DNA of 64,000 nt from a virus (IMGVR_UViG_3300022680_000058:32001-96000); one strand, 5' to 3'; positions 7,299 to 27,128 are shown, numbered from the stretch's first letter. Program-made: numbers and translations. The notes: generated by a model not told the origin, from the sequence alone.

Positions 7299-7850
7299 CT
7301 AGTAATCGGGGGTCAACACAACGCTACGACCAATCAGATCGCCGAGCGTCGAACTCCTACCCTGGCCACTCTCGACGGGAGACGGAAGCATCTGAATACG
7401 CCTCACGAACTCGGCGAGTGTCATGGGCTGCTCTGCCATCTCCTCCGCAATGAGGTTGTAGAGAGACGGCCACTTCTCCACCAATTCCAGAACGTAACCA
7501 GCGATGTCGAGGTATCTGTACCGAGAGACACTCTCTCCACCGCCAGGCTGCCTCATGCTTCGTCCGATAGGCGCCGTGGGGAGCATATCCTTGAGGTCGA
7601 CTCCCTCACGAGCCAATCGTGAAGCGTAAGCGATGCCGTAAGGCGCTGTAGCGTTCCTCTGAACCCACCGAGCCCACTCAGACTCCGTGAGATCCTGATG
7701 GCCCACAACGAAGACAGGGAGCACACCGAAGGCAGACCTCCCTGGGTAGTCCTCGTTGGTGAGCTTCGCGAGCTTCACGATCAGCCCTTCGCAGTCCGGA
7801 GGACCGGGGCGAATGGCCGATTCGAGTTGTTCTGACAAACGACGCCCCAC
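7299..7850 (-). CDS. Hypothetical protein, possible internal head protein
   Basis: N-terminus MGRRLSEQLESAI resembles the leaders of 14538 and 19644. Confidence 0.55.
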   Translation of the reverse strand: MGRRLSEQLESAIRPGPPDCEGLIVKLAKLTNEDYPGRSAFGVLPVFVVGHQDLTESEWARWVQRNATAPYGIAYASRLAREGVDLKDMLPTAPIGRSMRQPGGGESVSRYRYLDIAGYVLELVEKWPSLYNLIAEEMAEQPMTLAEFVRRIQMLPSPVESGQGRSSTLGDLIGRSVVLTPDY

Positions 7851-8332: not shown

Positions 8333-8737
8333 TTACCCGATCTTCCCTGCCCGCCTTCCGAGATAGGCGCAGAAGGCAGCCGGGTCCTTGACTCCAGAAC
8401 AGCACGCCTCGACGTACTTCTCACAGGTGTCAAAGGCGTCGCCTTTCCCACCCTTGAAGTCGCCCTTGGCGGTGCGATACTTCTTCCCGCACTCGCTGTC
8501 GCACTTCATGGCTTCTGTGAGCGCCATGGAGAGGATCTCCGGGTCGAGACCCATCACGCCAGCCATGTCCTCAGCAACAAACTGAGACGCCTCTTGAAGG
8601 TGCCAGCAAGGAGCCTCAGGACCATCACACCCTTCGTCGTCCTCGGTGAAGAGGTTTTCGTCATCCTCTTCATGGATCTGTTCATGGGAGTCATCTCCCT
8701 GAATGATGTTCCTGAGCTCCTCTGCCAACGACTTCAT
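8333..8737 (-). CDS. Acidic-leader, Cys-rich small protein (paralogue of 16845..17171)
   Basis: CGKKYR..AFDTCEKYVEACC..KDPAAFC; several LxE sites. Confidence 0.65.
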   Translation of the reverse strand: MKSLAEELRNIIQGDDSHEQIHEEDDENLFTEDDEGCDGPEAPCWHLQEASQFVAEDMAGVMGLDPEILSMALTEAMKCDSECGKKYRTAKGDFKGGKGDAFDTCEKYVEACCSGVKDPAAFCAYLGRRAGKIG

Positions 8738-8772: not shown

Positions 8773-11403
8773 CTATTCCGAAGAGCTGAAGATCTGCTCG
8801 AACCGGAACAGGAGAAATTCTCCAGGCTTGTTCACCGCGACATACACGTCACAGATGACCAGTCCATCCTCCTCGACGTTGGGAGGATTGTTGGTCTCAT
8901 CACAGATGACGGAAAACGCCTCCTGAGGCGTGTCACCCTTGAACAGCCCCTGCCCAAAGAGCGTCAACATGAAACTCTCGACGGACAGTTGAATGGTCTT
9001 CCTGAGGGACGAACCCACGTTCTCGAAAACGAACCCATGGGTACTGTTGAAGACCGAGACCTTCAGGAAGTTGAACAGCCTTCGAGCATGAATGAACCTG
9101 AAGTCCGATGGTGGATTCTCCAGAGTCCTTGCGCCCCACACACACCGCCCTGTCTGGGCAGTGTCCATGAGAGAGTTGACCTGCTTCGGGTGGAGAATAT
9201 CGAGCTCATCGAACTCCATGGTTCGTTCGAGACCGATGCTGAAATTCAGCTTGCCCTCGGTGACGCCAGCCGGAGCTCGACCCACAGATTTCGTGTTGTC
9301 CGTCCTAGCATACACACCAGCGATGTGCCCACCAGGAGGGATATTCACAGGAAGGTCCGTCACAGGGTCAGTGATCGTGATCCAAGGGTAGTACAGCGCG
9401 CCGTAACTGCTGTTCGCCCCGAGGTCATTGATCCTGTAACTCTGAGCCTGTTGAGGCGTGAGTCCCTCCGGAGTCGCCAGGATGATGAACCATTTCTCGT
9501 TCCGCTCGGCCTCTGTGAGCTGATCGAGGGACATCGTGACGTTTCCAGCCGCGTCAGGAATCGTGACGTTCTGGAGCTCGTTCGTCGGGAGCAAAGCGTA
9601 CATCCCTTCACGATCAGTGAGAAGGGTCGGGTCGGTGAGCTCGTTCCGAGTCACAGAGCCGGGAGACGCACCATCGGTACCACCGGCGGCATCCGTCTCA
9701 ACGAGACTGAGATCTGGTTGCTTGTAAAAGCTCGCCGTCGCGATCGACCCAGGAACGAGAACGGCAGGTCCGGCGCCGTGAGACGTCTCGGGCTCCTCGA
9801 TCTCCTGACCAGCGACGAGTCTGAACGCGAAGTGTCCGGTCGTGTAGTTGATGACGTTGAGATTCGACGGGGCTGTCCCATCGACGTCACCAATCAGATT
9901 CCCGTCACCGTCATCAGTGATGGTCCTCGTATTGCCACCAACATCCGTGTAGGTGATACTGACGGACCCTTGCTGAACAGGTGCCTCCAGCGGAAGCGTC
10001 CGAACACCAACCGGAATCACAGCCGACGTCAGACCACCACCACCAGCAGTGCCGTCAGTGGAGCCGTAATCGAGAGTCGGTGTCGCAACCGGGATACCGC
10101 CGTTTCCGGCAGCACACTGGACCGACCTAGCGAAACCACTCAGACGAACGGGGGCGACATCCGCATTCGACGGCTCGGTGAGCTCGATGTAGTCCGACCC
10201 GACACCGGCATTGTTGAGCACACTTCCAACGTACCGAGCATCAGAAGTGTCAGTGAAGCTCAAATCCTCGAAAATCTCTTCGAGGCTGCCGTCAACGGTC
10301 ACCAAGACATCAAACCGAGAGTACGACGCAGTGCTCCTGGTGAAGTAGTCATCGTCCCCACGGATGTCGACGTCCACACCGTTGCCCCAGGTACCTCCAG
10401 AGATGACCGAGTAGTCCCAGATCACCTGCGAATAGCAGACTTCGATCGGGCACTTGTTGTACGGAGCAGGAGACCCAGCATTGATGATGAAACTCGCCTG
10501 CCCTGTCGTGTAGTCGATGGTGTCCGACACGCCCGTGAGGACAGTGTCAGTAGACGCCAATGTTCCGGCGCCGTCATCAAAGATGGTGACCAAGTCTCCA
10601 GCCGGGGTGAAGTCCGCCGTCACCGCAGCCGCTGCATCGGGAACACTCGCCGTCGTTGTCTCGAAAGACAAGTTGAAGACGCCTGTCGTGTAATCGATGT
10701 ACCCACGAGCGATGTTGCTCGTATCGTAGAGAATACCGATTCCCTCTTGAGCTGGAGCCGGGGCATGAACCGCGTCATCACCATAGGTCACAGCGCCAGC
10801 GCTGACCAGCGTATTGATCGTCACTGACCCAGGAACGATCTTCGCGTCGTTCGCAACGACAATCCGGCTGATCATTGCATCGTTCGACGCCGCAGAAACA
10901 CCAGCCACACCATCAGGGACGGGAACAGGAGTCAGGGCCTGAGCCACAACCGGAGTCCCTGCTTCATAGTAGGTGATAGAGACACCACCAGGAGCAGGTG
11001 TGACTTGTTGGATCGGGAGTCCAGAAATGGCTGTGAGAGGAGTACCACCCGAAGAAAAGTCCTGCGTGGTACCATCACCCACACCAATCTGCTCCTCACA
11101 GACTGGATTCGTGAGCTCTCCGACAGCAGTCGCCGCGTCGGACGGGATCACACGAACGACATACGCTCGACGACCGCCATTCGCGAAAAACGCATAGACG
11201 TGTGTTGGAACCTGGCTCAGTGCGGTGAACGTCCCGAACTCTTCCGAGAAAGAGGTGTAGTTCGTCTTGAGCGTGGCTACGTTTGTCGGACCCTTGGTCG
11301 TGAAGCCGACGATGCCCATGTTCGACGTGGAAACGCCTTGAATCGGGGTCAACCCACTCGCGCGTTCCTCGACATACACGCCGGGATGGAGGTATTCTGC
11401 CAT
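8773..11403 (-). CDS. Contractile tail sheath protein with inserted beta domains
   Basis: MAEYLHPGVYVEE..FFANGGRRAYVVRV..YGALYYPWI..PPGGHIAGVYARTD..VWGARTL..KPGEFLLFRF. Confidence 0.95.
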   Translation of the reverse strand: MAEYLHPGVYVEERASGLTPIQGVSTSNMGIVGFTTKGPTNVATLKTNYTSFSEEFGTFTALSQVPTHVYAFFANGGRRAYVVRVIPSDAATAVGELTNPVCEEQIGVGDGTTQDFSSGGTPLTAISGLPIQQVTPAPGGVSITYYEAGTPVVAQALTPVPVPDGVAGVSAASNDAMISRIVVANDAKIVPGSVTINTLVSAGAVTYGDDAVHAPAPAQEGIGILYDTSNIARGYIDYTTGVFNLSFETTTASVPDAAAAVTADFTPAGDLVTIFDDGAGTLASTDTVLTGVSDTIDYTTGQASFIINAGSPAPYNKCPIEVCYSQVIWDYSVISGGTWGNGVDVDIRGDDDYFTRSTASYSRFDVLVTVDGSLEEIFEDLSFTDTSDARYVGSVLNNAGVGSDYIELTEPSNADVAPVRLSGFARSVQCAAGNGGIPVATPTLDYGSTDGTAGGGGLTSAVIPVGVRTLPLEAPVQQGSVSITYTDVGGNTRTITDDGDGNLIGDVDGTAPSNLNVINYTTGHFAFRLVAGQEIEEPETSHGAGPAVLVPGSIATASFYKQPDLSLVETDAAGGTDGASPGSVTRNELTDPTLLTDREGMYALLPTNELQNVTIPDAAGNVTMSLDQLTEAERNEKWFIILATPEGLTPQQAQSYRINDLGANSSYGALYYPWITITDPVTDLPVNIPPGGHIAGVYARTDNTKSVGRAPAGVTEGKLNFSIGLERTMEFDELDILHPKQVNSLMDTAQTGRCVWGARTLENPPSDFRFIHARRLFNFLKVSVFNSTHGFVFENVGSSLRKTIQLSVESFMLTLFGQGLFKGDTPQEAFSVICDETNNPPNVEEDGLVICDVYVAVNKPGEFLLFRFEQIFSSSE

Positions 11404-13419: not shown

Positions 13420-13770
13420 CTACACTTCTGTTGGCTCCTGGATTGGTTTCTTTTCCTCACCAGGCCACCGCCAATACAAACCATGAGCTGGTTGCACTGA
13501 AACATGAACGATGCTGGTATGCCCCTTCTCGGTCTGACGACCATAGGGGTCCTGCTTCGACTTATCTCGTGCTACACGAACAGCATTGATGCACGGCATA
13601 CATCCGTTGAGCTTGACGTCTCCGTGCACGGCTAGCACCAAAGCATTTTGGTCTACGCCTTCAGGGTCCGTAAAGATGACGACATCTCCAACGTGAGGTT
13701 GTCTCCGATCCATTATCTCTTGCTCCTTCTGCGACCTTGTTGCCGCGCAGGAGTCATGACGATCACTCAT
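13420..13770 (-). CDS. Hypothetical protein
   Basis: PHVGDVVIF..ALVLAVHG..CIN..YWRWP; start may be MDRRQP. Confidence 0.6.
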   Translation of the reverse strand: MSDRHDSCAATRSQKEQEIMDRRQPHVGDVVIFTDPEGVDQNALVLAVHGDVKLNGCMPCINAVRVARDKSKQDPYGRQTEKGHTSIVHVSVQPAHGLYWRWPGEEKKPIQEPTEV

Positions 13771-14135
13771 TTCTGGCCAACCGGAACCATGGCGTGCGGA
13801 GACTTCGGGCGAAGCATCTCCACATGCTCATCGCACGCCCCGACCATCCCCCCATCCTTCGCTTCGACGAGGTTGGTCGAATCCTTCCCACACCTGAAAC
13901 ACAAAGAGGCAATTGATTGCCTGCTCAATGGACCTCTATATGATGGGAACGACATACCACTGAGAGGACCACCACACTCCCCGTCGCCCAGTGCATCCCT
14001 ACACGAAGCCGAGTTCTCGCCTGTTGGCGCCATCCTCTCACAGCACGAGCACACGAATGAGTAACCCTGCTTCATGAACCTTTCCGTCTGGATCATACTC
14101 CTACTCCCTCCTCTACAACATACTCCGACCACCAC
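13767..14135 (-). CDS. Cys-rich zinc-binding protein
   Basis: CSCC, C..CGGP, CFRC, C..H; start probably MIQTER. Confidence 0.6.
   Translation of the reverse strand: MVVGVCCRGGSRSMIQTERFMKQGYSFVCSCCERMAPTGENSASCRDALGDGECGGPLSGMSFPSYRGPLSRQSIASLCFRCGKDSTNLVEAKDGGMVGACDEHVEMLRPKSPHAMVPVGQK
13906..13923. repeat. Conserved palindrome, copy 2
   Basis: GAGGCAATTGATTGCCTG inside CDS 13767..14135. Confidence 0.85.
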
Positions 14136-14538
14136 CTGAAACCACTGGCCACTTCCCTCCCTGGTATGGGTTCGGCTTCAAAACGTTCCTGACATACAAG
14201 TCCTTCACCCGATCGAGCCGAGACTTCTCCATGTCAGGGGGTGGGACGACCCACACAAGATACTTTTCCGGGTCCACATCCACTTCGAGAGTCGTCCCCG
14301 ACGAAACGTCTCGAACCCGAACAACACCAATGGCAGGATCAACCTGAGTGATTCGACCATGCTTGATGATGTTCTTCCCCTTCTTTGACCTCACAGTGAC
14401 CAACTGCCCAGCCATCAGGTTTACCCGCTCTGCCGCCTCCTCCAGCCTCGCAGAGTTTTCCACGATGTCAGAGACCTCGGATTCCTGTAAGGCTACAATC
14501 GCCTCTCTGAGGACCGCATTGATGCGCTGAACATCCAT
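14113..14538 (-). CDS. Leader-family protein (putative internal head cargo), SH3-like body
   Basis: Leader MDVQRINAVLREAIVALQESE..LEEA. Confidence 0.7.
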   Translation of the reverse strand: MDVQRINAVLREAIVALQESEVSDIVENSARLEEAAERVNLMAGQLVTVRSKKGKNIIKHGRITQVDPAIGVVRVRDVSSGTTLEVDVDPEKYLVWVVPPPDMEKSRLDRVKDLYVRNVLKPNPYQGGKWPVVSGGGRSML

Positions 14539-15170
14539 CAGACCGGAACTCCCTCGTAGCCAATGACACCCTTGATGTCCATGACCATCTCTCCGACCTT
14601 ATCGACCTGTGATTGGGCAAATGTTCTGGCGTCACCCTTCGATGATGTGAAGAAGATTCCGCGAGACCCCCATCCGCGTCTCACTGTCTTGACATAGACA
14701 GCACTTTCCCGCTCCTTTGACACCTTGATCAGAAATCTCTTCTTTCCACCCTTGCTGGCGCCCCCACCCTGAGCTTCGAGTTCTGCCAAAGTTTCACGAC
14801 CGAGCTGTGTAATGGACCACTTCTCAATCTCGGAGCCATCATCGTCACCCTTGTAGACCTCCATCACAATGAGGCCAAGATCCTCCATCTTGTAGAGGGT
14901 TGGAGTGAACATCCCCGTGATTGCTTTCGTGCCCATCGGGGTCGTGTACCACTTCCAGTAGTACCCAGTCCCAGGGTGCCTGGTGTAGAGGGTCCCATGG
15001 TCAGCAAGGTTTCTGAGCGTCTGCACAGCCTTTGGGGCGAGCCTTGGGAGCTTCTTCCCCTTCCGCCCTTTACCCTTGCTCGACAACTGTTTTGGCGTCG
15101 GAATTTCGTATCCACCGAGCTTCGTCTCACTAATTGCCGCATGAAGTTGTGCTGAAAGTTTAGGCATCAT
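14538..15170 (-). CDS. Leader-family protein with winged-helix-like body
   Basis: MPKLSAQLHAAISE-TKLGGYEIPTP-KQLSSKGKGRKGKK; TLYKMEDLGLI..WSITQLG. Confidence 0.7.
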   Translation of the reverse strand: MMPKLSAQLHAAISETKLGGYEIPTPKQLSSKGKGRKGKKLPRLAPKAVQTLRNLADHGTLYTRHPGTGYYWKWYTTPMGTKAITGMFTPTLYKMEDLGLIVMEVYKGDDDGSEIEKWSITQLGRETLAELEAQGGGASKGGKKRFLIKVSKERESAVYVKTVRRGWGSRGIFFTSSKGDARTFAQSQVDKVGEMVMDIKGVIGYEGVPV

Positions 15171-15739
15171 CAAATCCTGTCGTGTTCCGTCTTTCGGAAC
15201 GGCACGAACTTCGACCTAAGCTTGACCTCGATCTTGAACTGAACGAAGGTTGATGTCGTGAAGACATTTCCATCCCTGGTAGCCTTCACTACATCCCACT
15301 GACTGAACTGAGACGAGTTTCCGAATGGAACCTCTGACCAAAATTCGATAATGTCGCCCTTCTTCGGATACGGGGCGCTCCTGTCCTCGAACTCTTTTCT
15401 TGAAATCCAGATGACAGCCTCAGACTCCGTTCTCGCACCCTGCTCACTTGCTTCCACAGTGACATTGTCCGACTGTGGATAGTCAATCGCCGCATAGAGC
15501 TCGAAAGGCCCGTTGTACGACCAATCCTTCCCCTCATGAGAGGGCTCTCCATAAACAGGATCTCGATTCTTAGCTCTACGAAGCTGATAGAGCTTCACAG
15601 GCTCTCCAGCGAGCCTGGCAGGCTCTGTAGCAACGGAGTCCCACAACGCTTGTTCCGTGCCACAATCATCACAATCGCTGCCCGGAAAGATGCGTCTCGT
15701 GGGCTCGCAGTCGTCGCTACAGAACCCCATCACCACCAC
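15170..15739 (-). CDS. Neck protein, T4 gp14-like
   Basis: GEPVKLY..DPVYGE..VIWISRKEFE..PKKGDIIEF. Confidence 0.7.
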   Translation of the reverse strand: MVVMGFCSDDCEPTRRIFPGSDCDDCGTEQALWDSVATEPARLAGEPVKLYQLRRAKNRDPVYGEPSHEGKDWSYNGPFELYAAIDYPQSDNVTVEASEQGARTESEAVIWISRKEFEDRSAPYPKKGDIIEFWSEVPFGNSSQFSQWDVVKATRDGNVFTTSTFVQFKIEVKLRSKFVPFRKTEHDRI

Positions 15740-16314
15740 CCCTGATATTTCGCCGGTGGCCTCTTCTGAGCATGTCCAGTAACAGACCTGGCGATATTTC
15801 CAAGCTTCTTGGCATAGTTCGTGATTTTGCTGGCGAGCGTCTTGATCCCTCCCTCATCATCAATCGAGACATTCTTCCCGATCGTCATGAGCTCTGGGTA
15901 CTCATCAACCCACTGGTCCACAACCATCTGAGCATCTTTCTTCCGGTCAAAGAATGTCCCCTCATACCCGCCAAAAGCCATGCTCATCCCAGTTGTGGCA
16001 TGAGAAATAACCCACGAAGTTCCTTTATGGCTCTTGTGAACAGCCCAGACACCTTTGACATACGCCTTGATTGGCTGCTTCGTGTGCCCCTCATCATGGA
16101 ACATGTTCGGGACACGGATCTTGATGGTTTTCCCCGACCATCCAGTCGGCCCTTTCTTCCCCTTCTTCGGCGACTTCATCCCAAAAGTCCCTGGAGCACG
16201 AACATCATAGCTCGTTACACCAGAGGCTATTGCCTCAGCCATTACGGCGATCTCATCTTCTTGAAATGTTGAAATCGCCGTCACGAGAACAGTGTTGACC
16301 GTGTGAACATCCAT
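15730..16314 (-). CDS. Leader-family protein (putative internal head cargo)
   Basis: MDVHTVNTVLVTAISTFQEDE..MAE-AIASGVTSYDVRAP. Confidence 0.7.
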   Translation of the reverse strand: MDVHTVNTVLVTAISTFQEDEIAVMAEAIASGVTSYDVRAPGTFGMKSPKKGKKGPTGWSGKTIKIRVPNMFHDEGHTKQPIKAYVKGVWAVHKSHKGTSWVISHATTGMSMAFGGYEGTFFDRKKDAQMVVDQWVDEYPELMTIGKNVSIDDEGGIKTLASKITNYAKKLGNIARSVTGHAQKRPPAKYQGWW

Positions 16315-16841
16315 CACATATCTGCCTTGAACGCAAGGTGCGCTTTCAGAGCTTCGAGGATGTCCTTGTAGACGTCTTTCACGGTTCTGCCCGACGTGAT
16401 GATCGATGCCTTACCATGGTTGAGAACGCCGCCGACATCAACAGAGCTCGGGTTGATGAACATGTCAATGTTCTTCTGCCAGCCGACCTTCTTCTCATCG
16501 AAATCGACGAAGACCTGTCGTCTGTCCTTCTTCTTCCCGGTTCCCTTGTAGCCCTGGTAGACCCTCTTGGTTCCTGGGAGGTCTTTCTTGAGCTTCTTGA
16601 GCTGCTTCAAGAGCGCCGTAGAAAACTTGACCCTCTCTTCGAGAGTCCCCCCGCCAGTGATCCCCGCTGGAGAGAACTTCGATGGAGGAGGAGGAGTATA
16701 CTGCTGTCCACGAGGGGACGGAACTCTGTACACCCCGGTGACACCATGAGCCATCGCCGCCTCGTGGAGGTCGTCAACCTCACACTCCTGGAAGAAAACA
16801 ATGGCTTCGACCAGTGTCGTATTGACCGCCTGAATGTCCAC
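16314..16841 (-). CDS. Leader-family protein (putative internal head cargo)
   Basis: MDIQAVNTTLVEAIVFFQECE..LHE-AAMAHGVTGVYRVPSP. Confidence 0.7.
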   Translation of the reverse strand: MDIQAVNTTLVEAIVFFQECEVDDLHEAAMAHGVTGVYRVPSPRGQQYTPPPPSKFSPAGITGGGTLEERVKFSTALLKQLKKLKKDLPGTKRVYQGYKGTGKKKDRRQVFVDFDEKKVGWQKNIDMFINPSSVDVGGVLNHGKASIITSGRTVKDVYKDILEALKAHLAFKADM

Positions 16842-16844
16842 AGC

Positions 16845-17171
16845 TCACCCCTTTTTCTTGGTCCGGTTCTTCATGATGCTGACGCAAACGCCTTCCGGCT
16901 CTTTCGCCTTGGAACACCGTCGGAAAGCATCAACACAGTCTGAGAAGCTATTGAAGTCCTTCCCTTGCTTGTCTCGGTACTTCCGCATGCAGTCAGGTTC
17001 GCTCTTGATGGGACCTGTGGGCCGCTTCCGCTCCTTGCCCTTCTTCCCCCTCTTGGCAAGCGCCGCCGGTGTTGGAGGCGTGTATGCCGCCTCGGAGATC
17101 CCATCGATGTCCGCTTCCTGAAAACCGATGATTGCTTGAAGGAGAACCGAATTGACCTGCCCGATATCCAT
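16845..17171 (-). CDS. Leader-family protein with Cys-rich body
   Basis: MDIGQVNSVLLQAIIGFQEAD..ISE-AAYTPPTP; CMRKYR..FSDCV..C..EPEGVC. Confidence 0.7.
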   Translation of the reverse strand: MDIGQVNSVLLQAIIGFQEADIDGISEAAYTPPTPAALAKRGKKGKERKRPTGPIKSEPDCMRKYRDKQGKDFNSFSDCVDAFRRCSKAKEPEGVCVSIMKNRTKKKG

Positions 17172-17174
17172 GAC

Positions 17175-17768
17175 CTACCTCGCTTCACCAACACCAACGG
17201 ACTCAAAGGCAGGATCGCCCTCCATTTTGTCCGCATGGGGATAATACCTCATGGTGTAAAGCCAGCCCTTCAATGGGGCAAGCCCACCAGTTCCATAATA
17301 CTCTGTCGTGAACCTGCCCTTGAACGCCTTGCCGCCGATCTTTGTCCTGAGTGTTTTTGCGACATCTTTTGCAATCTTTGGAACATCTTTCGACTTGCCA
17401 TCGTCAGCGTCCATGAAGATAGAAACCTGGAATTGCGGTCCAAGCTTCTTCGAGACGTCCTGACCAAAAGTGTGGCCTGTAGCACGGATCGAAATCTTGG
17501 GGTACTTCTGCTTGAACTTTTTGTCCAATTCAGAGGCTATCGCGATGATTCTCGATCCGTAGATTCTCTCGAAGTGTTTAGCAAGGTGCATCTTGCTATA
17601 CCGCTTGAACTCCTCAGGACTCGGCACATGGAATCCAGACCCGTACTTCTCTCCGGTAGCGCTCGTTCTGTACGGCTTCCCGACGATGTACACTGACTCT
17701 TCGAGCTCACTCTCTTGGAAGCCGATGATCGCCTGAAGAAGAACCGAGTTGACTTGCCTGATATCCAC
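17175..17768 (-). CDS. Leader-family protein (putative internal head cargo)
   Basis: GTG start at 17768: MDIRQVNSVLLQAIIGFQESELEE-S..GFHVPSP. Confidence 0.7.
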   Translation of the reverse strand: MDIRQVNSVLLQAIIGFQESELEESVYIVGKPYRTSATGEKYGSGFHVPSPEEFKRYSKMHLAKHFERIYGSRIIAIASELDKKFKQKYPKISIRATGHTFGQDVSKKLGPQFQVSIFMDADDGKSKDVPKIAKDVAKTLRTKIGGKAFKGRFTTEYYGTGGLAPLKGWLYTMRYYPHADKMEGDPAFESVGVGEAR

Positions 17769-17772
17769 GCCC

Positions 17773-19227
17773 TCACCCCTTGCCCAACAATTCAACAATA
17801 TCATGCACAGGGACCCAGCCGGGAGATGTTTTCAGAAGAGGGAGACTCTTGAGCGCCTCTTCTGCTTCGACCTGCTCCGGATCTGACCCAAGTTTCTTGA
17901 GCTCACGAACGACCTCGAATCGCTCTCCATCCTGAGTCACTGTGTGAGCGGACCTCTCGTCAGTGAACTTTCCGTCTTTCCCGTGGTAGGTCTTCGACTC
18001 GCCGAACACCTGTTTCCTAGCCTTGACGAGCTTGATCTTCCTCTGGAACTTCCCCTGAACGTCGTCACCCTCGAAACCAACCTTGTTGAGGTAGATTTCT
18101 GTCGCACGAATCCACTCCCGCTGTCGGTGGGCTTCTTCGTCCCGATCATCCACAGAATGCATGAGAGCGAGACCAGCCATGGCCACCCCGTACCAGAATG
18201 GACTCGATGACCTTAGATGACGAAACGCCGTGTCGTCGTCGATGTCACTCCACGTCCAACCAGTACCACCCTGGTAAGACGTCTTTGCCCTTGTCGTTCG
18301 ACGAACCTTCGCCTTGGCAAAAGCGATATCGAGGAGCTTATCAGCGAGACGCCTCGCAGGATGCCTTGTCATCATCCTCGGGACGAAACGTTTCAACATC
18401 TCAGGATTCGCACGAGATGACATCCTCATGAAGTTCTTCTCGTTCGAAACAGCCTCTCGGTCCTCGGGCACGTCAACCCTCTTGGCCCAATTGACACCCT
18501 TCATGTACTGAGACGTGTCACGCCTGAGGTTTGGCAACGGGACATCAACATCAACCCCAGCGAGCTCAACCCCCATGGTCTTTCTTGGACCCGAGGCCTT
18601 GTCCTTCTTCCCCATCACATCCTTCTCTGGGTTGATGTCCTCTGGGTTCAGGTACTTGCTCCTGAGCTCACGAGCTGTTCTCTGTACGTAGTCCTCACGT
18701 TCGCTCTTCGGCAACGCCCCCTTGAGCGCCGATCCAGCCATCGCCACGCCATACCAGAACGGATCAGTCTTGAGGAGGTCACCAGGAACTACCCCATGGA
18801 ACTGATACCCGCCCCGAGTTGTCCCTACGCGCCTCATCTTATCGGCGACCAGATCCACTGGGTGAGTGATGTTCGCCACGACAGTCCCCTGGTCGAGCAA
18901 GACAGCGATAGACTTCCTGTCCATCTTCTTCGCCCCCTCCAGGCTCTTCGTGATGGACCTGAGCTTCGGGTCCTCGAACTCGGGCAGATCCTTCGTCATG
19001 TTTTTGTTCGCCCAGTTGACACCCTTAACAAACTGAGACTGGCGTCCAGGGGATGTGTTCGGGACCTTGACGTCAGCCGTGACGCCCCCATAACTGATGA
19101 TCGGCTTCTGCCGATAGAGAGGCGTCGGGTCCTTCTCCACTTTCGGCGGCGCCGGAACATCAAAAGACGTCACTCCCTTGGCGACTGCTTCATCAACGCG
19201 GCTGAAAAGATTGCCCCACCTACTCAT
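17773..19227 (-). CDS. Leader-family protein with two copies of an unrecognised domain
   Basis: Start MSRWGNLFSRVDE-AVAKGVTSFDVPAP after a GAGGT RBS; KGVNWA..HP..ADK..PFWYGVAMAG occurs twice. Confidence 0.75.
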   Translation of the reverse strand: MSRWGNLFSRVDEAVAKGVTSFDVPAPPKVEKDPTPLYRQKPIISYGGVTADVKVPNTSPGRQSQFVKGVNWANKNMTKDLPEFEDPKLRSITKSLEGAKKMDRKSIAVLLDQGTVVANITHPVDLVADKMRRVGTTRGGYQFHGVVPGDLLKTDPFWYGVAMAGSALKGALPKSEREDYVQRTARELRSKYLNPEDINPEKDVMGKKDKASGPRKTMGVELAGVDVDVPLPNLRRDTSQYMKGVNWAKRVDVPEDREAVSNEKNFMRMSSRANPEMLKRFVPRMMTRHPARRLADKLLDIAFAKAKVRRTTRAKTSYQGGTGWTWSDIDDDTAFRHLRSSSPFWYGVAMAGLALMHSVDDRDEEAHRQREWIRATEIYLNKVGFEGDDVQGKFQRKIKLVKARKQVFGESKTYHGKDGKFTDERSAHTVTQDGERFEVVRELKKLGSDPEQVEAEEALKSLPLLKTSPGWVPVHDIVELLGKG

Positions 19228-19235
19228 GACCAACC

Positions 19236-19640
19236 TCACACAGTTTTCTCGATGTCCCTGAACAGATCCTTGAATCGCTTGTACTTCGCCGGGGCTTCTT
19301 TTTCCATGGCGTGCTTCATCGTCCGGCGAGCTCCCTTCTGAGTCTGCCTGATGCTCGACACCTGACCGCCCTTCTTGTAGGGGGGCTTCAGGTATCCATT
19401 GCGAGTCATCGCCCAACGACAGATGTTCCACGCCGCACGAACGCTCTTCTTCTTCCCACCATTCTTGCCATCTTTCACAGCGACGATACAGTGAGCAAGC
19501 TGAGCTGGAACCCTGTCGACCTTCGCCGCCGCCTTCGAGCCGCCTGGCTTCTGTTGCTGGCGAGGAGGTTTCCTCCTCAGACCTCCACGGGGAGCTTGGC
19601 GCCTCTCAAGAATCATCTCGACTGGTACCCACAGACTCAC
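19236..19640 (-). CDS. Basic small protein (HC..AWNIC motif), putative internal head protein
   Basis: Very K/R-rich; leader MSLWVPVEMILE. Confidence 0.65.
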   Translation of the reverse strand: MSLWVPVEMILERRQAPRGGLRRKPPRQQQKPGGSKAAAKVDRVPAQLAHCIVAVKDGKNGGKKKSVRAAWNICRWAMTRNGYLKPPYKKGGQVSSIRQTQKGARRTMKHAMEKEAPAKYKRFKDLFRDIEKTV

Positions 19641-19643
19641 AAC

Positions 19644-20228
19644 TCACCCCACACACAGATCGTTGCAGATGTTCGAGAAGTATTTCTTCTTCAAGGCTAC
19701 AACCTCTCGGTCGACGTAGTCATCCTTCTGCCTCATCGTGAGGGAGCGAATGAGCGCCTCCCCGACCATCCCGACAGCGTACCAATAAGGATCGGTTTCC
19801 AGCATCTGGTCTGGTACCGTTCCGTCGTACCTGTAACCGGCTTTCTGTGAAGCCATAGCGATCAGCTTCTTCGCCACCCGCTCAACAGGATGCCTCATCA
19901 CAGACTGATACCGACCAGACGAAAATCCGGAACGGACAGCTCCAATGTTCCGGCCAGACTGCTTCTCGATCTCACGAACAACGAACGCCAAACCCTCATC
20001 AGGAGGTGGCGGGTCCTTCAAGACAGTATCCTTCACCCACTCGACGCCGAGCCTGAACTTCTCGTTCGTCCACGCAGACCCCGCTGGCGTCTTCACAGTA
20101 GCGCTCACAGGCCCGTAAGAAACTCTGAGGGGGACTCCACCCCTGGTCACCTTCCTTTGCATTTGAGACGGCGTAGGCACCTTGTATGAGCCAGCCATCG
20201 CCTCCAGCAACCGAGCGGAGAGCTGCAT
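19644..20228 (-). CDS. Leader-family protein with one copy of the 17773 domain
   Basis: MQLSARLLE-AMAGSYKVPTP; GVEWV..RHPVERVAKK..DPYWYAVGM. Confidence 0.75.
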   Translation of the reverse strand: MQLSARLLEAMAGSYKVPTPSQMQRKVTRGGVPLRVSYGPVSATVKTPAGSAWTNEKFRLGVEWVKDTVLKDPPPPDEGLAFVVREIEKQSGRNIGAVRSGFSSGRYQSVMRHPVERVAKKLIAMASQKAGYRYDGTVPDQMLETDPYWYAVGMVGEALIRSLTMRQKDDYVDREVVALKKKYFSNICNDLCVG

Positions 20229-20231
20229 GTA

Positions 20232-21011
20232 TCACCCCACGATGAAAGGAACAGGATCGCTGAGACTGATCAGCTCCTGATCAAGTGAGAGTTTCTCGTC
20301 CTGAGCTTCGGCGAGTAGTGTCTCACCGTCCATAGATTTCGCACCACCTGCCGACGGGAATTCAGTGTACTTCCCACGGACTCGACCGAGGCGTTCTTTG
20401 AGACACGCCCTGGCGTACCTGAGGATCATGTCCCTGTCACGGAACCGAAGCTTCCTGAAATCATTCACAGGGGTCGTATCAGGCGCCACAGGGTCCTCGG
20501 TAACCAAGGTGGTGCTGGCGTATCTGGCGACCACTGTTCCAGTCGAATGGTTGACCGGATAGATGGACAGCAAGTTGTCGACTCGGCTGTACTCCCACGA
20601 TGGCTCGGAGCCGACAACCCGCTTCGCTGTCTCGGAGTGGGCGATCATCTGGTTGAGGGTGCCGTAAAACGAGCCCCCAGGGATTCCTGTGAGGCTCGCA
20701 TAGGCCACGGGGAGCATGTCCACGTCAATGAACGCGAAGGGGTTGATCGAGGCAATGACATCGAGCTGGACACCAGGGAACCAAACGGACAAAACCTCGT
20801 CACAGTCATCAGGCATCGAATAAGTGCTGATTCCAGACGAGACATTCTGAACGGCATGTCGTTTGATCCCCTTTTTCCCGATCCACCACCTCAAGGCATC
20901 ATCGAAGGAATCACTGCAATGCTCGTCAGTGACTTCGAGGACCACAACGCCACAGCCCAGCGAGCGCTTGACCCAGCCCTCAGCCTCTTCCCTGTTCATT
21001 GGGTCCGTCAT
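20232..21011 (-). CDS. Neck protein, T4 gp13-like
   Basis: WVKRSLG..VLEVTDE..DDAL..RYARACLKERLGRVRGKY..GG..MDGETLLAEAQDE..FIVG. Confidence 0.85.
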   Translation of the reverse strand: MTDPMNREEAEGWVKRSLGCGVVVLEVTDEHCSDSFDDALRWWIGKKGIKRHAVQNVSSGISTYSMPDDCDEVLSVWFPGVQLDVIASINPFAFIDVDMLPVAYASLTGIPGGSFYGTLNQMIAHSETAKRVVGSEPSWEYSRVDNLLSIYPVNHSTGTVVARYASTTLVTEDPVAPDTTPVNDFRKLRFRDRDMILRYARACLKERLGRVRGKYTEFPSAGGAKSMDGETLLAEAQDEKLSLDQELISLSDPVPFIVG

Positions 21012-21725: not shown

Positions 21726-23219
21726 TCAGAGTCCGCCAGTGATTGCGACGCGCCCGAACCATTCGCTCCTCAAGAGCTTGGTTGCATATCGGGTCCTCAT
21801 CCCCTTCTTGTTCGTCTGATCCTCAGGATCTTGGAACGTCTGGGTCATTTGAAGGGGGACGTATGGGCTGAAGACGAAGCCCGCATCCAGATAGCTGCGA
21901 CCACGGAGGCCAAGCATGATGTTGTTCCAGGAGAAGAAGGGGTCTTGGTATCCCCACCACTTGTTGGAGAGGGGACCCATCTTGAGGATGCCCTGGTGCG
22001 AGGTCATGGGACCGTAGCTCGGGGGCACCTGGATGCCATCGAAGGGGCCTTGAACGCCAGCACCGGAGGAGATCCATCCGGGGCGATAGTCGCCATGGGT
22101 CTGGGTCTGAATGAGCTTGGCCGAGACGTCGGGACTGGTGACGTACCAGTTTGCCGGGGCTCGGAGGGTTTGCTTGTGGATCTCGAAGCTGACGGCGCTC
22201 ATCCGAGTCATGACAGCTCGGATGTGGTCGACCTCGGAGAGACCAGCAGGAACGGTGAAGTCGAAGGTATCGGTGATACCCGCCGACGCCGCATAGAGCT
22301 GGTTGATGATGTCGCGGTCGATTTCGAGAGCGACTTCCTGGGCGATGCCGCCGACGAGCTCTGTTTCGGCGTCGAGCCCGTGGAACGCTCGGAGGTCATC
22401 CTGGGCCTCAGAGCTCCAGCGAGCCTTGAGCTTGCGGGTTTGAGCCTGGATGGGCAGGAAACTGATGTCGATGTAGACATCCGGGATGTTCCGGTTGCCT
22501 TCCATGTCGTACCAGTAGGTCACCCGAACGATGTTGCCATTGGTGGTGTTGACGCCGAACTGGAAGTTCGTGATCTGGCCATTGGCATAGTTGATGGTAC
22601 CAGAGGTCGCACCAGTGAACCCACCAGATCCATTGTCGACGTGACTTTGGACGATGATGTCCGCAGTCGCGTTGTACTCCTCGACCGTCACCGAGTAGCC
22701 CAGGTCGGCGTCGAGCGGACGAACTGGGTTGTACTGAAGGATGGTCGCACCAGAACCACCAGCCGGTGACCACTCCTGAGCAGCAGTGATATCAGCGAGC
22801 TTCTCATACTCGATCTTCTCGGAGGAGTAGAGCGAGTCGAAGTTCTGGATGAGGTTCGAGCCAGCCGTGGTCCCTCCCTTGGAGCGGCCATGCTTGAACT
22901 CGAAGTAGAAGACCGCACCGACGGGAGAAGTCATCGGCTGGACCGAGACGATCTCGTTGGCGATCAGGTTGGGGAACACCCTCCGGAGAACCGGAAAGAT
23001 GTACTTCGTGTACGATCCCGCGTTGGTCGAGAGCGTGTCCTCTTCGAGCTGCCGACGCATGTCACGGAACTGGTTCTCCATGAGCATGGCCATGCACTTG
23101 CGGGTGTAGTCTTCCTGGATGCCGCCGAGGTAGCGACCCCATTTTTTGACGAGCAGAGAAGTATATCGCTGGTCGCGAATCGTCTCACTCCCTGCCTCGT
23201 TCAGATTTTGTCTACTCAT
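21726..23219 (-). CDS. Major capsid protein, T4 gp23-like
   Basis: LMENQ..FPVLRRVFPNLIANEIVSVQPMTSPVG..RKLKARWS.EAQDDLRAFHGLDAETEL..EIDRDII..PYVPL..GMRTRYA. Confidence 0.97.
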   Translation of the reverse strand: MSRQNLNEAGSETIRDQRYTSLLVKKWGRYLGGIQEDYTRKCMAMLMENQFRDMRRQLEEDTLSTNAGSYTKYIFPVLRRVFPNLIANEIVSVQPMTSPVGAVFYFEFKHGRSKGGTTAGSNLIQNFDSLYSSEKIEYEKLADITAAQEWSPAGGSGATILQYNPVRPLDADLGYSVTVEEYNATADIIVQSHVDNGSGGFTGATSGTINYANGQITNFQFGVNTTNGNIVRVTYWYDMEGNRNIPDVYIDISFLPIQAQTRKLKARWSSEAQDDLRAFHGLDAETELVGGIAQEVALEIDRDIINQLYAASAGITDTFDFTVPAGLSEVDHIRAVMTRMSAVSFEIHKQTLRAPANWYVTSPDVSAKLIQTQTHGDYRPGWISSGAGVQGPFDGIQVPPSYGPMTSHQGILKMGPLSNKWWGYQDPFFSWNNIMLGLRGRSYLDAGFVFSPYVPLQMTQTFQDPEDQTNKKGMRTRYATKLLRSEWFGRVAITGGL

Positions 23220-23254: not shown

Positions 23255-24895
23255 TCAGCGCTGGTTCTCTGGAATACCAGAGAGTTCATCGAAGGCATCA
23301 TCCGTGAGTCCGAAGCCTTCGACCAACGCGCCCGATTGGCCCTCACCGTTTTTGTCTCTCCAGGGCTCCGACGTCCCGTCCCTGAACGGGTTCTCTTCCT
23401 CTGACAGAGCCCTTCTGTTCCCCCGACTCACACGAGAACGGATTCGTTCTGCCTCGTCCTGGTCGAGAGCTCTCGTTCGTCGAGCACCAAAGGATCTGAT
23501 GACCCTTTCGGCGCCATCGATATCTGTGATCCCCTCACAGAGATCCACGACCTCTTCACCTTGCGGGTGTGCCGTCTGGACCCCTCTGAGGTACGACTCG
23601 ATCTGAATCGTCTCTGCAATCTGGATGGCCTCCTTCAGCTTCGACTTGGCGTGGTCCGCCTCCTCAGTCGCTTTCGAGAGCTTTCCCTCCAGATTTGCGA
23701 TCCTCTCACGGAGCTTGGCTTCGATGTCATCAGGTTCGTCATCCTCAGTCTTTGCCGAAGAGAGTTCGCCCTGAATAGCCTCAATCCGCTCGTCAATCTC
23801 GCTGACGTTTTTGAACGACTTCACATCTCCCACGAGCTTGACGATGGTGTCCCTTGAAGGGTCTCCACTCAACTTCCGCTCCATGTGGAGTCTGTATGTC
23901 GCCTCTTTCGCCACCTCAGCCATTTCGGCGTACTTCTTTTCCGCCGCCTCGACCTCCAACTCCTTGTCAGAGACCCTCTTTTCGAGCTCAGAAACCTTGC
24001 CCGACTGGTCATCCGCTCCATCACCTGTCGGAGTCGACGACGCGAAACTCGTGACGAGCCCAGCAATCTGCTCCAACACCTGGATGGCGCCACCGACCTC
24101 CGGGTCGTTCAGTAGTTCCTGTCGAACCCTCGTCTCGGCAGCCTCATCGAGCTTTTCGATCTTGCGAAGGAGTTCGTTCGAGAGCTGCTCCCTGACCTCC
24201 TCCTCGATCAGAGCACGCTCGGGAGACTCGACGTCTTCCCTGATCGGCTCCCCATCACCATCTGCCAGCGGACAGCCACAGCCCTCTCTGAGAGCCGCTG
24301 CTGCGAATTCATCCGCGAGACCTGGGTAGTCACGCTTGAAGGACTCCAAGGTGAAGTCTCCGTCACCTGGGACCTTCTCGATCTCTTCCTGGAAGACCTT
24401 GGGGTATGCAGTCTTTGTCGCTGGGTCTGCCACGAAGTCAAAAGTGTCCAGTCTGAAATCTTCCTGAACCTCCATAATCCCATTCGGGAGCGCCTTCGTG
24501 GAACCGAAACCTCGGCTACTGACACCGACCTTGGCCCCCGCCTCGGCCAGGGTCTTCATGATGCGACCCATAGGAGTGTCGAGGAGCTCAGCCTCCCCAA
24601 TGACTGAGTTCCCCTCAACACGAAGATTCGTGAGCAAGTGACTGACACGTTGAAGCTTGGTTCTTCCGTCAGCCGGATGATCGAGCTCTCCGAACGCCCT
24701 GCGATCTCTCATCGCCTCAGACAGTCGCCCGATCTCACGCCGCCAAAGATGCTCTCTGTAGAGACGCTTGTTCTCGGTTGGCTTATCAGACCTGGCGAAT
24801 TCGCCCTTCATGACGAGCTTGTGAGGCTTTGATGAGTCTGCCGACTCCTGCAAAGCACACGAAAACGTCATGGTGTCGATGAGCAGCTCAGCCAT
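23255..24895 (-). CDS. Prohead protease (T4 gp21-like) fused to a scaffold-like coiled coil
   Basis: NKRLY..AFGELDHP..VSH..GVSSRGFGS..FDFVADP, followed by an acidic coiled-coil region rich in LxE sites. Confidence 0.92.
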   Translation of the reverse strand: MAELLIDTMTFSCALQESADSSKPHKLVMKGEFARSDKPTENKRLYREHLWRREIGRLSEAMRDRRAFGELDHPADGRTKLQRVSHLLTNLRVEGNSVIGEAELLDTPMGRIMKTLAEAGAKVGVSSRGFGSTKALPNGIMEVQEDFRLDTFDFVADPATKTAYPKVFQEEIEKVPGDGDFTLESFKRDYPGLADEFAAAALREGCGCPLADGDGEPIREDVESPERALIEEEVREQLSNELLRKIEKLDEAAETRVRQELLNDPEVGGAIQVLEQIAGLVTSFASSTPTGDGADDQSGKVSELEKRVSDKELEVEAAEKKYAEMAEVAKEATYRLHMERKLSGDPSRDTIVKLVGDVKSFKNVSEIDERIEAIQGELSSAKTEDDEPDDIEAKLRERIANLEGKLSKATEEADHAKSKLKEAIQIAETIQIESYLRGVQTAHPQGEEVVDLCEGITDIDGAERVIRSFGARRTRALDQDEAERIRSRVSRGNRRALSEEENPFRDGTSEPWRDKNGEGQSGALVEGFGLTDDAFDELSGIPENQR

Positions 24896-24903
24896 TTCAA
24901 CTC

Positions 24904-25122
24904 CTACCGGGACCTGATTTCTCCAGAACGATACTGGCTCCTAGCCAGTAGGTCACCGAGACGCTTCTTGGGTCTTTTCCGCTTCGGGACAATTTTCTTC
25001 TTCCCCTTAGCCTCGAACCCAATCCTGTCTCTGACCGTCCCTCCAAGTCCAAGGATGTCCCGTCGGCGACTCCGATGTTTCAGCTTGTTGGCTTCCAAGA
25101 GCCACCGAACGGGAATCCACAC
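24904..25122 (-). CDS. Small basic protein, putative internal head protein
   Basis: Leader MWIPVRWLLE followed by a K/R-rich body. Confidence 0.55.
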   Translation of the reverse strand: MWIPVRWLLEANKLKHRSRRRDILGLGGTVRDRIGFEAKGKKKIVPKRKRPKKRLGDLLARSQYRSGEIRSR

Positions 25123-25130
25123 CTCACGCC

Positions 25131-26171
25131 CTACTCGCCGTCGTCGTCGAAGAAATTGATCCCGGAGAAGTCTTCGTCATCTCCGTCGTCGATATCCTCG
25201 TCCTCATCGATCTGGGTGTCGTCGTCGATGTCCTCATCCTCATCGAGGAATTCATCATCTTCGTCGTCATCCACATCTTCGAGAAGACCGTTCTCGATAC
25301 CCATCCCGATCGACTCGTGAAGACTGGGTTGCCCCAAATCCTCGTGAGCCGCCATGGCCTTGCTGACACCTTCGAGGAGCCCATTGAGCTTCTCTTCGAT
25401 GGACTCGCTGAGCTCCCCACCGTTGGCTTCGATCTCCTCGGAGATGGTGGCGCCGGTGTCGCTCATCGTGTAGAGCATGTCGGCGATGCTCTGATCACCG
25501 ATGGCCTCGAAACACTCGCCAAGGAGGTGAGCCAGATACCCGGCATTGAGAGCAGCATCCTCATACTCACTCACATCGCCCGTGTTGGTGCTGGTGCTCT
25601 CCAAATCTTCCTTGAGCTGAGACAGCCGATCGCTCGCCTGGATGTTGACACTCTCCTGACGGACGATGAAACCCTTCTTGGTCTTGCCCTTCCGCATCTT
25701 GCGGCGCTTGGCGATCTTGCTCTTGAACCGCTTGCGGTAGAGTCGAGAGGCAGCCTTGAGAGCTCCCCTCTTCTTTCGACGCGCAGCCTTCTCCTTCCGG
25801 AGTTGCTGCTTCGACACCTTGACCATCTTCCCGGAGGCGTCCATCCGATAGCCCTTCTTGCGACGCTTCAGGGCTTCGTCCATGGTCTCGGGCTCTCCGT
25901 CGATGTCCTCGTCATCGTCGTCCACTTCCTCGTAGACGTCGCTGGGAGCGGAGTCGGAGCCGACCTCTTGATAGATGTCACCACACCCACAATCCTCTTG
26001 GAGCGGGTCTTCTCGAACACCCTCGCCGCCGAGAGGAGCGGTGGACCACTCTTCCACGAGCTTGCAGTTGCGGTCCATGTCACCGATGATTTTGTTCGGG
26101 TCGAGACCGAGGCTCTCGATGTCCTCTTCCAACGGTCGGACTGTTCTGTCTTCGCCGTACATTACCTTCAA
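25131..26171 (-). CDS. Putative prohead core protein (acidic, with a basic patch)
   Basis: Lies between portal and protease, as T4 gp67/gp68 do; many LxE/IxE sites; KAARRKKRG..KRRKMRK patch. Confidence 0.65.
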   Translation of the reverse strand: MKVMYGEDRTVRPLEEDIESLGLDPNKIIGDMDRNCKLVEEWSTAPLGGEGVREDPLQEDCGCGDIYQEVGSDSAPSDVYEEVDDDDEDIDGEPETMDEALKRRKKGYRMDASGKMVKVSKQQLRKEKAARRKKRGALKAASRLYRKRFKSKIAKRRKMRKGKTKKGFIVRQESVNIQASDRLSQLKEDLESTSTNTGDVSEYEDAALNAGYLAHLLGECFEAIGDQSIADMLYTMSDTGATISEEIEANGGELSESIEEKLNGLLEGVSKAMAAHEDLGQPSLHESIGMGIENGLLEDVDDDEDDEFLDEDEDIDDDTQIDEDEDIDDGDDEDFSGINFFDDDGE

Positions 26172-26180
26172 CCTCCCTGC

Positions 26181-27128
26181 CTACGCTTGAGGTGTTGAAC
26201 TCAAAAAATGGCTGACGAATTTCTCAGAAAACGCCGCCGCCAGATTCATCTCTCTCAACCTCGAAGCCACACCATCATGAACCCGTCCAAGGCTCATGAC
26301 ATCCCCGCCGTCAGCGACAGCAATCGCACTCTCGACGATTCCAATGGTATCTTCCAGATTCTCGCTGAACTCATGGACGAACTCACCAAAGTCTTCGCCA
26401 AGCAACCCTTCCTCACCGGAAGTCATGTTCTCGTCAAACCCAGACCGCATGACTGATTCTACATCGACATGCATTCGCCTGAGCTCTGAAAGGACGTCAT
26501 CGAGTGAAACCTGGATAGAGTCCCTGATTCGTTGGTCCGAACGGTCCACAGCGGACTCGAAAAGATCGTTGAACTTCGGCTTCGGGAGAGCCCTGTTGGC
26601 GTCCGAACCAACGAACTTTGCCATCGACTCTTCATTCTCCCGAACCGCCTCGATCCAGTCGTGGTCATCACCCATCGCGATCAAGTCATCCTCGACACCC
26701 TCAGCGGTGAACTTCACGCCAGACCTTGCCATCGTGTAAAGAGACTCGATACGGGCGTCCGCCTCATCATCGTTCCCATCCAGGATAGCATCCACGACGA
26801 GGAGTGACTCTACCTTCGCATCGCCACTCAACTCAGAAGCTTCTTTGACCGGGACCTGCACCTGTTCGACAGTCCCGAGCTCCAAGTCACCCGTCTCCTC
26901 ATTCCGAGAAAGCTCGACCTTGAAAAACTCTCCACTCTCGTTGACCACGATCGCGTGCTCAGAGAATGTCCCGATGACACGAATCTCGTCGTCACTGTCG
27001 CCGCCGAAAAGGTCAAGGTTGGAAGACACAGCCTCGTCAACCTCGTTCCTCACAACCTCGAAACTCCCATCGAGGAGTTTCGCCAGTGCTTCGCCGTCAA
27101 CCAATCTCTGTGTAGCCATGTTTCCCAA
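26181..27128 (-). CDS. Putative prohead core / head assembly protein
   Basis: Acidic 315 aa ORF downstream of the portal gene. Confidence 0.55.
   Translation of the reverse strand: MGNMATQRLVDGEALAKLLDGSFEVVRNEVDEAVSSNLDLFGGDSDDEIRVIGTFSEHAIVVNESGEFFKVELSRNEETGDLELGTVEQVQVPVKEASELSGDAKVESLLVVDAILDGNDDEADARIESLYTMARSGVKFTAEGVEDDLIAMGDDHDWIEAVRENEESMAKFVGSDANRALPKPKFNDLFESAVDRSDQRIRDSIQVSLDDVLSELRRMHVDVESVMRSGFDENMTSGEEGLLGEDFGEFVHEFSENLEDTIGIVESAIAVADGGDVMSLGRVHDGVASRLREMNLAAAFSEKFVSHFLSSTPQA

Follow-up and report, generated by a model that had tools for sequence, protein, structure and literature searches.

Short N-terminal leaders on unrelated proteins in an uncultured myovirus, interpreted as candidate cleavable head-targeting tags

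We analyzed bases 32,001–96,000 (64,000 bp, hereafter the window) of the IMG/VR virus record IMGVR_UViG_3300022680_000058, which is 147,979 bp long, has inverted terminal repeats and an estimated completeness of 77%, and represents an uncultured lineage of myoviruses whose head chemistry is of the T4 type. The genes of the window lie on the minus strand, and its structural module runs in the order portal, two acidic proteins, a basic protein of 72 amino acids (aa), protease, capsid, adaptor, array, sheath and two tube genes. The array, positioned between the gp13-type adaptor and the sheath, is the subject of this study; apart from gene C, its genes encode proteins that begin with a short leader, in most of them of a class termed long, short-type or third below. 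Its genes are labeled A to J, coordinates are those of the window, and a slash marks the predicted point of cleavage.

14113..14538, minus strand: candidate cargo A, 141 aa; long leader at residues 1–27 with IVE at 25–27, and a second site, RLEE/A, at 31–35
14538..15173, minus strand: candidate cargo B, ~208 aa; short-type leader KLSAQLHAAISE followed by GGYEIPTP and a patch rich in Lys
15170..15739, minus strand: gene C, 189 aa; untagged and conserved, within the array
15730..16314, minus strand: candidate cargo D, 194 aa; long leader (MAE/A), followed by GVTSYDVRAP, a patch of Lys residues and a compact body of alpha/beta type
16314..16841, minus strand: candidate cargo E, 175 aa, GTG start; long leader (LHE/A), then YRVPSP
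16845..17171, minus strand: candidate cargo F, 108 aa; long leader (ISE/A), followed by YTPPTP, a patch of Lys residues and a body rich in Cys
17175..17768, minus strand: candidate cargo G, 197 aa, GTG start; long leader with LEE/S, LEE being residues 22–24
17773..19227, minus strand (true start at ~19227): candidate cargo H, ~484 aa; leader MSRWGNLFSRVDE/A followed by GVTSFDVPAP and by the domain of cargo J in two copies
19236..19640, minus strand: basic core protein I, 134 aa; third leader type, xLWVPVEMILE/R; conserved in the relatives L001, L007 and L023
19644..20228, minus strand: candidate cargo J, 194 aa; short leader MQLSARLLE/A, then MAGSYKVPTP

The long leader heads genes 14113–14538, 15730–16314, 16314–16841, 16845–17171 and 17175–17768. 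Its strict motif, D[VI]xx[VI]NxxLxxAIxx[FL]QE, searched as a regular expression in six frames, gave five matches and no more, both in the window and in the whole 147,979-bp genome, always at a minus-strand N-terminus and behind a GGAG/GAGG-type ribosome-binding site, matching the count of five in a preliminary description of the locus. Two leaders described there as nearly identical, those of 16845 and 17175, indeed have QVNSVLLQAIIGFQE in common; gene G starts with the GTG at 17768 rather than the ATG at 17804. With a profile of these five leaders, four further genome copies were recovered, each of them outside the window, along with a diverged one on a 650-aa protein. The consensus reads M-[DN]-I-[EQ]-[RK]-[VI]-N-x-[VT]-L-x-[KR]-A-I-x-x-[LF]-Q-x-x-E-[ILV]-[ED]-x-[LM]-x-E, mostly followed by Ala. 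Residues 25–27 form [LIM]-x-E in eight of the nine genome copies (IVE, MAE, LHE, ISE, LQE, MAE, LTE and LAE), a recurrence at fixed position with P ~1e-14 against a genomic background of 1.34% per position; the sole exception in register is gene 17175, with LEE at residues 22–24. The register previously given for the [LIM]-x-E end of the leaders had to be corrected to residues 25–27: in 14113 the site is IVE, and the LEE-A cited for it is a second site at 32–34.

That the bodies behind this leader are unrelated, as had been claimed, was borne out by BLASTP among the five tagged proteins, in which matches were confined to the N-terminal 27–50 residues. The body of F is Cys-rich, again as described, and is conserved; an ortholog in a relative (L004:9730–10062) has 42% identity and the same leader. 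Nucleotide identity among the five leader DNAs is 51–68%, and about half of the identical residues are encoded by different codons; selection therefore acts on the peptide itself. Because the synonymous sites are scrambled, the common leader cannot stem from a recent duplication or from gene conversion, and a conserved RNA element is ruled out as well. A Sec or Tat signal peptide was likewise rejected on account of the acidic N-terminus (MD...), the net charge of -4 to -7 and the lack of a basic n-region. In the AlphaFold2 model of D (15730; 14 relatives in the alignment), residues 3–30 are helical, residues 31–59 disordered, and residues 60–180 form an independent, compact domain with a predicted local distance difference test (pLDDT) score >90; the 27-residue leader is thus modeled as a helix of its own, and a disordered linker lies between it and the folded body. 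Searches with the D body gave no usable fold match (Foldseek against PDB, best E 0.13; VIA-align wide, best Z 4.0).

Comparison with relatives indicates that leaders have been exchanged. The body of gene A is a core gene of the clade and adjoins the 15170 ortholog in eight relatives; all eight carry a short leader on it (MNLSAQLYEA, VKLSEQLHEA, MRLSTQLMEA and others), whereas the 27-residue leader precedes this body in the present genome only. Homology of gene A to its orthologs starts at residue 28, directly behind the long leader, and the closest ortholog (L001) aligns from its residue 12, directly behind the short leader. Different leaders are thus joined to one body at the same point in different phages, which shows that tags have been swapped. 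Outside the array, a long-leader gene on the plus strand at genome position 119,508 encodes a body that matches the short-leader protein L001:6055–6450. The array position also varies in content: in the closest relatives by capsid protein (L001 and L003; 79% identity) it is filled with short-leader genes only, and in the 77% relative (L004, L019) it holds seven long-leader genes.

The short leaders form a class of 9–10 residues, M[RKQ]LSxxLxE/A, which is found on 14538, 19644 and 7299, probably on 8333, and on four genes that lie outside the window. Shorter leaders had been proposed for 14538, 17773 and 19644; all three are real, and those of 14538 and 19644 fit M[RKQ]LSxxLxEA, whereas that of 17773, MSRWGNLFSRVDE, ends in VDE and falls outside the pattern. 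Two protamine-like core proteins (19236 and 24904), both conserved across relatives, begin with a third leader, W[VI]P[VI]xx[LI][LI]E. The leader-bearing genes of the window beyond the array are as follows.

7299..7850, minus strand: gene between sheath and tube; short-type leader RRLSEQLESA
8333..8737, minus strand: gene between sheath and tube; leader MKSLAEELRNII, and a Cys-rich part resembling the F family
24904..25122, minus strand: basic core protein, 72 aa; third leader, VWIPVRWLLE/A

The Cys-rich part of 8333..8737 aligns with L004:9730–10062 at 39% identity over 46 aa (E 5e-4). Some bodies are paralogous, namely H with J, and L004:10066 with L004:10523. Short-type leaders were also seen outside the window at genome 2,399–4,781 on the minus strand, on proteins of 321 aa (MRRLAEELMSLIE) and 302 aa (MRLSQRLDEA). 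The C-terminal module of H (TYHGKDGKFT...GWVPVHDIVE), with which the protein ends, corresponds to the N-terminal module of differently built proteins in relatives (L001:3767–4408 and L020:4592–6298), where the GW[IV]P motif lies inside the chain with a further body behind it. Such a layout suggests domain shuffling or polyprotein-like processing at the motif.

Scanning the genome with a hidden Markov model (HMM) of the leader, a check suggested in the preliminary description, returned the four or five extra copies, mostly in a second array outside the window. This array comprises six tagged genes at genome 104,097–110,336 on the minus strand (L024:4097–10336), flanked by a ParB/MT-A70 fusion gene and a ParB gene; in the relative L029 it is syntenic and lies beside replication genes. 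Together with the gene at 119,508, it shows that tagged genes are not confined to the head module. Two proteins of the second array, of 478 and 650 aa, contain HExxH motifs and are weakly homologous around them. By language-model features, the HExxH domain of the 478-aa protein (L024:8879–10315, minus strand; residues 280–478) is closest (0.95) to clusters of lethal-factor-related metalloendopeptidases annotated with PF07737; HMM searches gave no support for a lethal-factor-type assignment of this domain, which had only four homologs among 5.8 billion proteins. Pfam and PHROGs searches placed none of the tagged proteins in a family.

The leader is widespread beyond this genome. A database profile built from 21 sequences over 47 positions and run against 1.84 billion representative proteins (E <= 1e-3) gave 135 matches, of which 134 clusters were real and one was a repeat artefact. 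Their members range from 42 to 650 aa, and the leader starts exactly at residue 1 in 123 of the 133 clusters that could be put in register. N7 is invariant, and L10, A13, I14, Q18 and E21 are conserved at 92–98%. At residues 25–27, 100/133 clusters have [LIMFV]xE, and P1' is Ala in 54. Directly behind the site, 72/133 clusters carry a [YF]x[VI]P[ST]P-like motif, which is often repeated and then followed by Lys-rich sequence. The mean leader charge is -3.4, whereas the predicted mature parts have a median isoelectric point (pI) of 9.9, and 84% exceed 8.5, compared with 32% of the crude gene calls of this genome. The 117 bodies of at least 50 residues fell into 44 BLAST groups, and a real Pfam domain was present in 0/134 tagged clusters. 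In relatives, leader genes adjoin the Gp23 and gp13 genes. One database protein (P0012, 393 aa) carries a single leader in front of three bodies, one Cys-rich and of the F type and two of the D type, i.e. a fused multi-cargo protein. Among 50,697 records of cultured phages, neither the array DNA nor protein D found a match.

The same structural module encodes a protease and a capsid protein of the T4 type, listed here with a candidate core protein.

21726..23219, minus strand: Gp23-type major capsid protein (Pfam Gp23, 1e-60)
23255..24895, minus strand: S77 (gp21-type) prohead protease with a 370-aa coiled-coil extension (Pfam Peptidase_S77, 2e-16; PHROG 207, 9e-49; 5JBL, 4e-8)
25131..26171, minus strand: acidic/basic protein, 346 aa, candidate core or scaffold protein (14 [LIM]xE sites against 7.2 expected)

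The gp21-type protease previously placed at 23255 was confirmed by its S77 matches and by its catalytic His and Ser. Aligned to T4 gp21 (5JBL), it has ELDHP and VSSRG where the 5JBL chain reads NAP and VASRG, and H73 and S126/S127 are invariant in 15 relatives; from these residues the enzyme appears active. It was the only match to the S77 profile in the genome at E <= 1. Its extension holds 14 [LIM]xE sites against 7.8 expected from composition; this richness, like that of the 346-aa protein, is the pattern that a digested scaffold would be expected to have. The extension is a Glu-rich coiled coil with a conserved C-terminal tail, GL..EFD.L[AS]G, and the whole protein looks like a gp21–gp22 fusion. 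No cultured phage record covers 80% of this protease–scaffold fusion. The capsid protein, at most 32% identical to that of any deposited phage, has four of its five [LIM]xE sites within residues 1–60, with L58-x-E60 invariant, and is predicted to carry an N-terminal propeptide. In relatives it begins with MEARxMxx-E/AG, a site like that of the short leaders, and the start annotated here, MSRQNLNE/AGS, has the same site.

We propose that the 27-residue N-terminal modules are propeptides that target proteins to the capsid and that the head protease then takes off, following the system of capsid-targeting sequence (CTS) and internal proteins in T4, and estimate the probability of this reading at roughly 75%. 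The array is read as head cargo with cleavable tags because it matches the T4 principle point by point. What the sequences show is a modular leader with its site at a constant position, which stands before unrelated bodies, has been exchanged for another leader, and occurs together with the protease and a capsid protein of the Gp23 type. The idea of a swappable head-targeting tag removed by a protease had been raised at the outset, and its sequence-level predictions all held. Mechanistically, the acidic leader helix would dock the nascent protein on the assembling prohead core or the inner shell. After closure of the shell, the S77 protease (23255–24895) would cut behind Glu27, and probably at other L-x-E sites, so that the leader is lost. 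The mature protein, in most cases very basic and in many beginning with [YF]-x-[VI]-P-[ST]-P and a Lys-rich stretch, would remain with the packaged DNA, and some mature proteins would probably exit with the DNA at infection. Judged by its leaders, this phage appears to use at least two interchangeable tags, the long one and the 9–10-residue MxLSxxLxE/A. By analogy with T4, injection of some cargo and an action in host takeover or anti-defence are plausible; the two zincin-like bodies add some support to the notion of injected effectors, for which the lethal-factor-type link is a lead only.

Several observations weigh against this interpretation. About a quarter of the database members have no L-x-E at residues 25–27, among them a subgroup of 13 clusters with acidic bodies. 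The amphipathicity of the leader is modest (frequencies of 0.06–0.47 for its hydrophobic moment against shuffles). At 27 residues it is nearly three times as long as the T4 CTS (10–19 residues), to which no likeness is evident, the T4 CTS having been compared by description only. Finally, the array is flanked by adaptor and sheath genes and does not have scaffold genes as neighbors.

Tagged proteins could instead be transient parts of the prohead core, co-assembled through the leader, then degraded and expelled so that nothing is delivered. In T4, gp21 likewise cuts the core proteins gp22, gp67 and gp68 (PMC9026906); gene A belongs to the conserved core genes, and the bodies of the 13-cluster subgroup are highly acidic, of low complexity and scaffold-like; this subgroup may indeed represent scaffold instead of cargo. 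For the family as a whole, however, we consider such a role improbable: the mature parts are mostly basic (the median pI given above), their compact folded domains have no internal L-x-E clusters and in this resemble the T4 internal proteins that are retained with the DNA, the bodies show a great diversity and a restriction to single lineages that are unusual among scaffolds, and two of them have enzyme-like HExxH domains.

The place of the window array between the gp13-type adaptor and the sheath would also fit a permanent, uncleaved helix that attaches accessory proteins to the neck or collar, or that oligomerizes to build an inner body, and the a/d-like hydrophobic spacing in the helix would suit a coiled coil. 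This is quite improbable given that the L-x-E-Ala site is kept at its fixed position in 100/133 clusters, that the same body can carry a 10-residue leader too short for an anchor, that tagged genes also occur in the replication region, and that a disordered linker follows the helix. We regard it as highly improbable that the common N-terminus is simply the best-conserved part of one diverged, tandem-duplicated paralog family and has no addressing role. Although the genes stand in tandem and some bodies are paralogous (the H/J and L004:10066/L004:10523 pairs), homology stops sharply at residue 27–50, the bodies form 44 groups, the same body bears different leaders in different phages, and the helix is structurally separate from the body.

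To our knowledge, T4 is the only phage with a worked-out common and transferable capsid-targeting peptide on diverse internal proteins, and its tag is a basis of T4 protein-delivery vectors. Outside phages, encapsulin cargo-loading peptides are similar to the leaders described here in that a short conserved peptide sends unrelated cargo inside an HK97-fold shell, yet they are C-terminal, are not removed by a protease, and involve neither DNA nor delivery. In T4, propeptides of 10–19 residues target internal proteins to the core and are removed by gp21; these basic proteins, of which each occurs in ~300 copies, are co-purified with gp22 and vary from one relative to another (PMC9026906, PMC3012670). 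The cleavable capsid-addressing idea itself is therefore established as the T4 CTS principle (PMC9026906, PMC3012670). As on IPI, IPII, IPIII and Alt of T4, the candidate N-terminal propeptide here is common to unrelated, mostly basic proteins and ends in [LI]-x-E for an S77 protease, the capsid is of the Gp23 type, some cargo genes are distant from the head genes, as is T4 alt, and cargo sets vary between relatives. Unlike in T4, six leader positions are near-invariant across 133 clusters, at least two leader classes appear interchangeable in one genome, at least 15 candidate cargo genes contrast with four, the [YF]xVP[ST]P and Lys motif recurs behind the site, and the protease is fused to a scaffold-like extension; the system is known here from sequence alone. 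What is new relative to T4 is the tag, with its particular size and the strictness with which it is conserved, together with the presence of several tag classes and a documented swap between them, the post-cleavage motif, and the size of the pool of unknown cargo.

Likenesses extend to other phages. In phiKZ and SPN3US, many head-internal ejection proteins lose N-terminal propeptides to a gp21-related protease (gp175/gp245) that cuts after Glu, and these proteins form paralog families, as some do here; the propeptides of SPN3US, however, are mostly 111–254 residues long and do not constitute one common short tag (PMC10052503, PMC5694885). Val is also reported to be favored at P4, and Ser at P1', in such cleavages (PMC10052503). 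About 30 N-terminal residues of DarB suffice to send a protein into the head of phage P1, but the Dar proteins have no consensus and no S77 cleavage motif, and are loaded stepwise in dependence on other Dar proteins (PMC9024508).

The present data describe an independent and much larger tag family, with 134 protein clusters and ~44 body groups, none with a known domain, and provide direct comparative evidence of tag exchange on the same body from an uncultured myovirus clade. If the targeting interpretation is true, the leader would offer a simple sequence rule for finding packaged, and possibly injected, phage proteins in metagenomes, and the pool so defined is where anti-defence and host-takeover factors would be expected. 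It would also allow two or three tag types working in one head to be compared, and would supply, besides the T4 tag, another candidate by which foreign proteins might be loaded into phage heads. We further consider, as a doubtful but possible extension, that the leaders constitute a combinatorial addressing code, in which long and short leaders dock at different prohead sites or times and the post-cleavage motif acts as a second signal. The cleavage-exposed [YF]xVP[ST]P and Lys-rich motif might then anchor cargo to the DNA and set its retention or order of ejection, and a leader swap, as on gene A, might alter the copy number or location of the protein. Were this so, the array would be a natural programmable protein-delivery system whose cargo comprises dozens of unknown effector families, including zincin-like enzymes.

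The remaining features of the structural module are the following.

8773..11403, minus strand: sheath; the two tube genes belong to the same module
20232..21011, minus strand: gp13-type head–tail adaptor, 259 aa (PHROG Ad2, 9e-9; PDB gp13, E 2e-3)
25131..26171 and 26181..27128, minus strand: the two acidic proteins
27193..28983, minus strand: portal

The array had been described as interleaved with gp13 and gp14 neck genes. The gp13 assignment is supported for 20232–21011, where the PDB match spans the C-terminal 65 residues and a 74%-identical ortholog carries Pfam gp13 on record, whereas gp14 is not established for 15170–15739. Orthologs of this gene C in relatives have 45–75% identity, and searches against PF11649, Pfam, PHROGs and PDB gave no match; its AlphaFold2 model is poor (pLDDT 46.8), and a language-model search (Atlas) produced one gp14 lead, at rank 25 with a score of 0.91. 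It is possible that gene C encodes a neck or head-completion protein. Following gene A, a 122-aa Cys-rich gene with CxxC pairs (13767–14135) is kept in all relatives and has neither a leader nor a family match. Upstream of the portal, an open reading frame of 1101 aa (28995–32300) has only weak PHROG matches (7e-10), to terminase large-subunit and helicase-like families, and may encode an unusually large or fused terminase.

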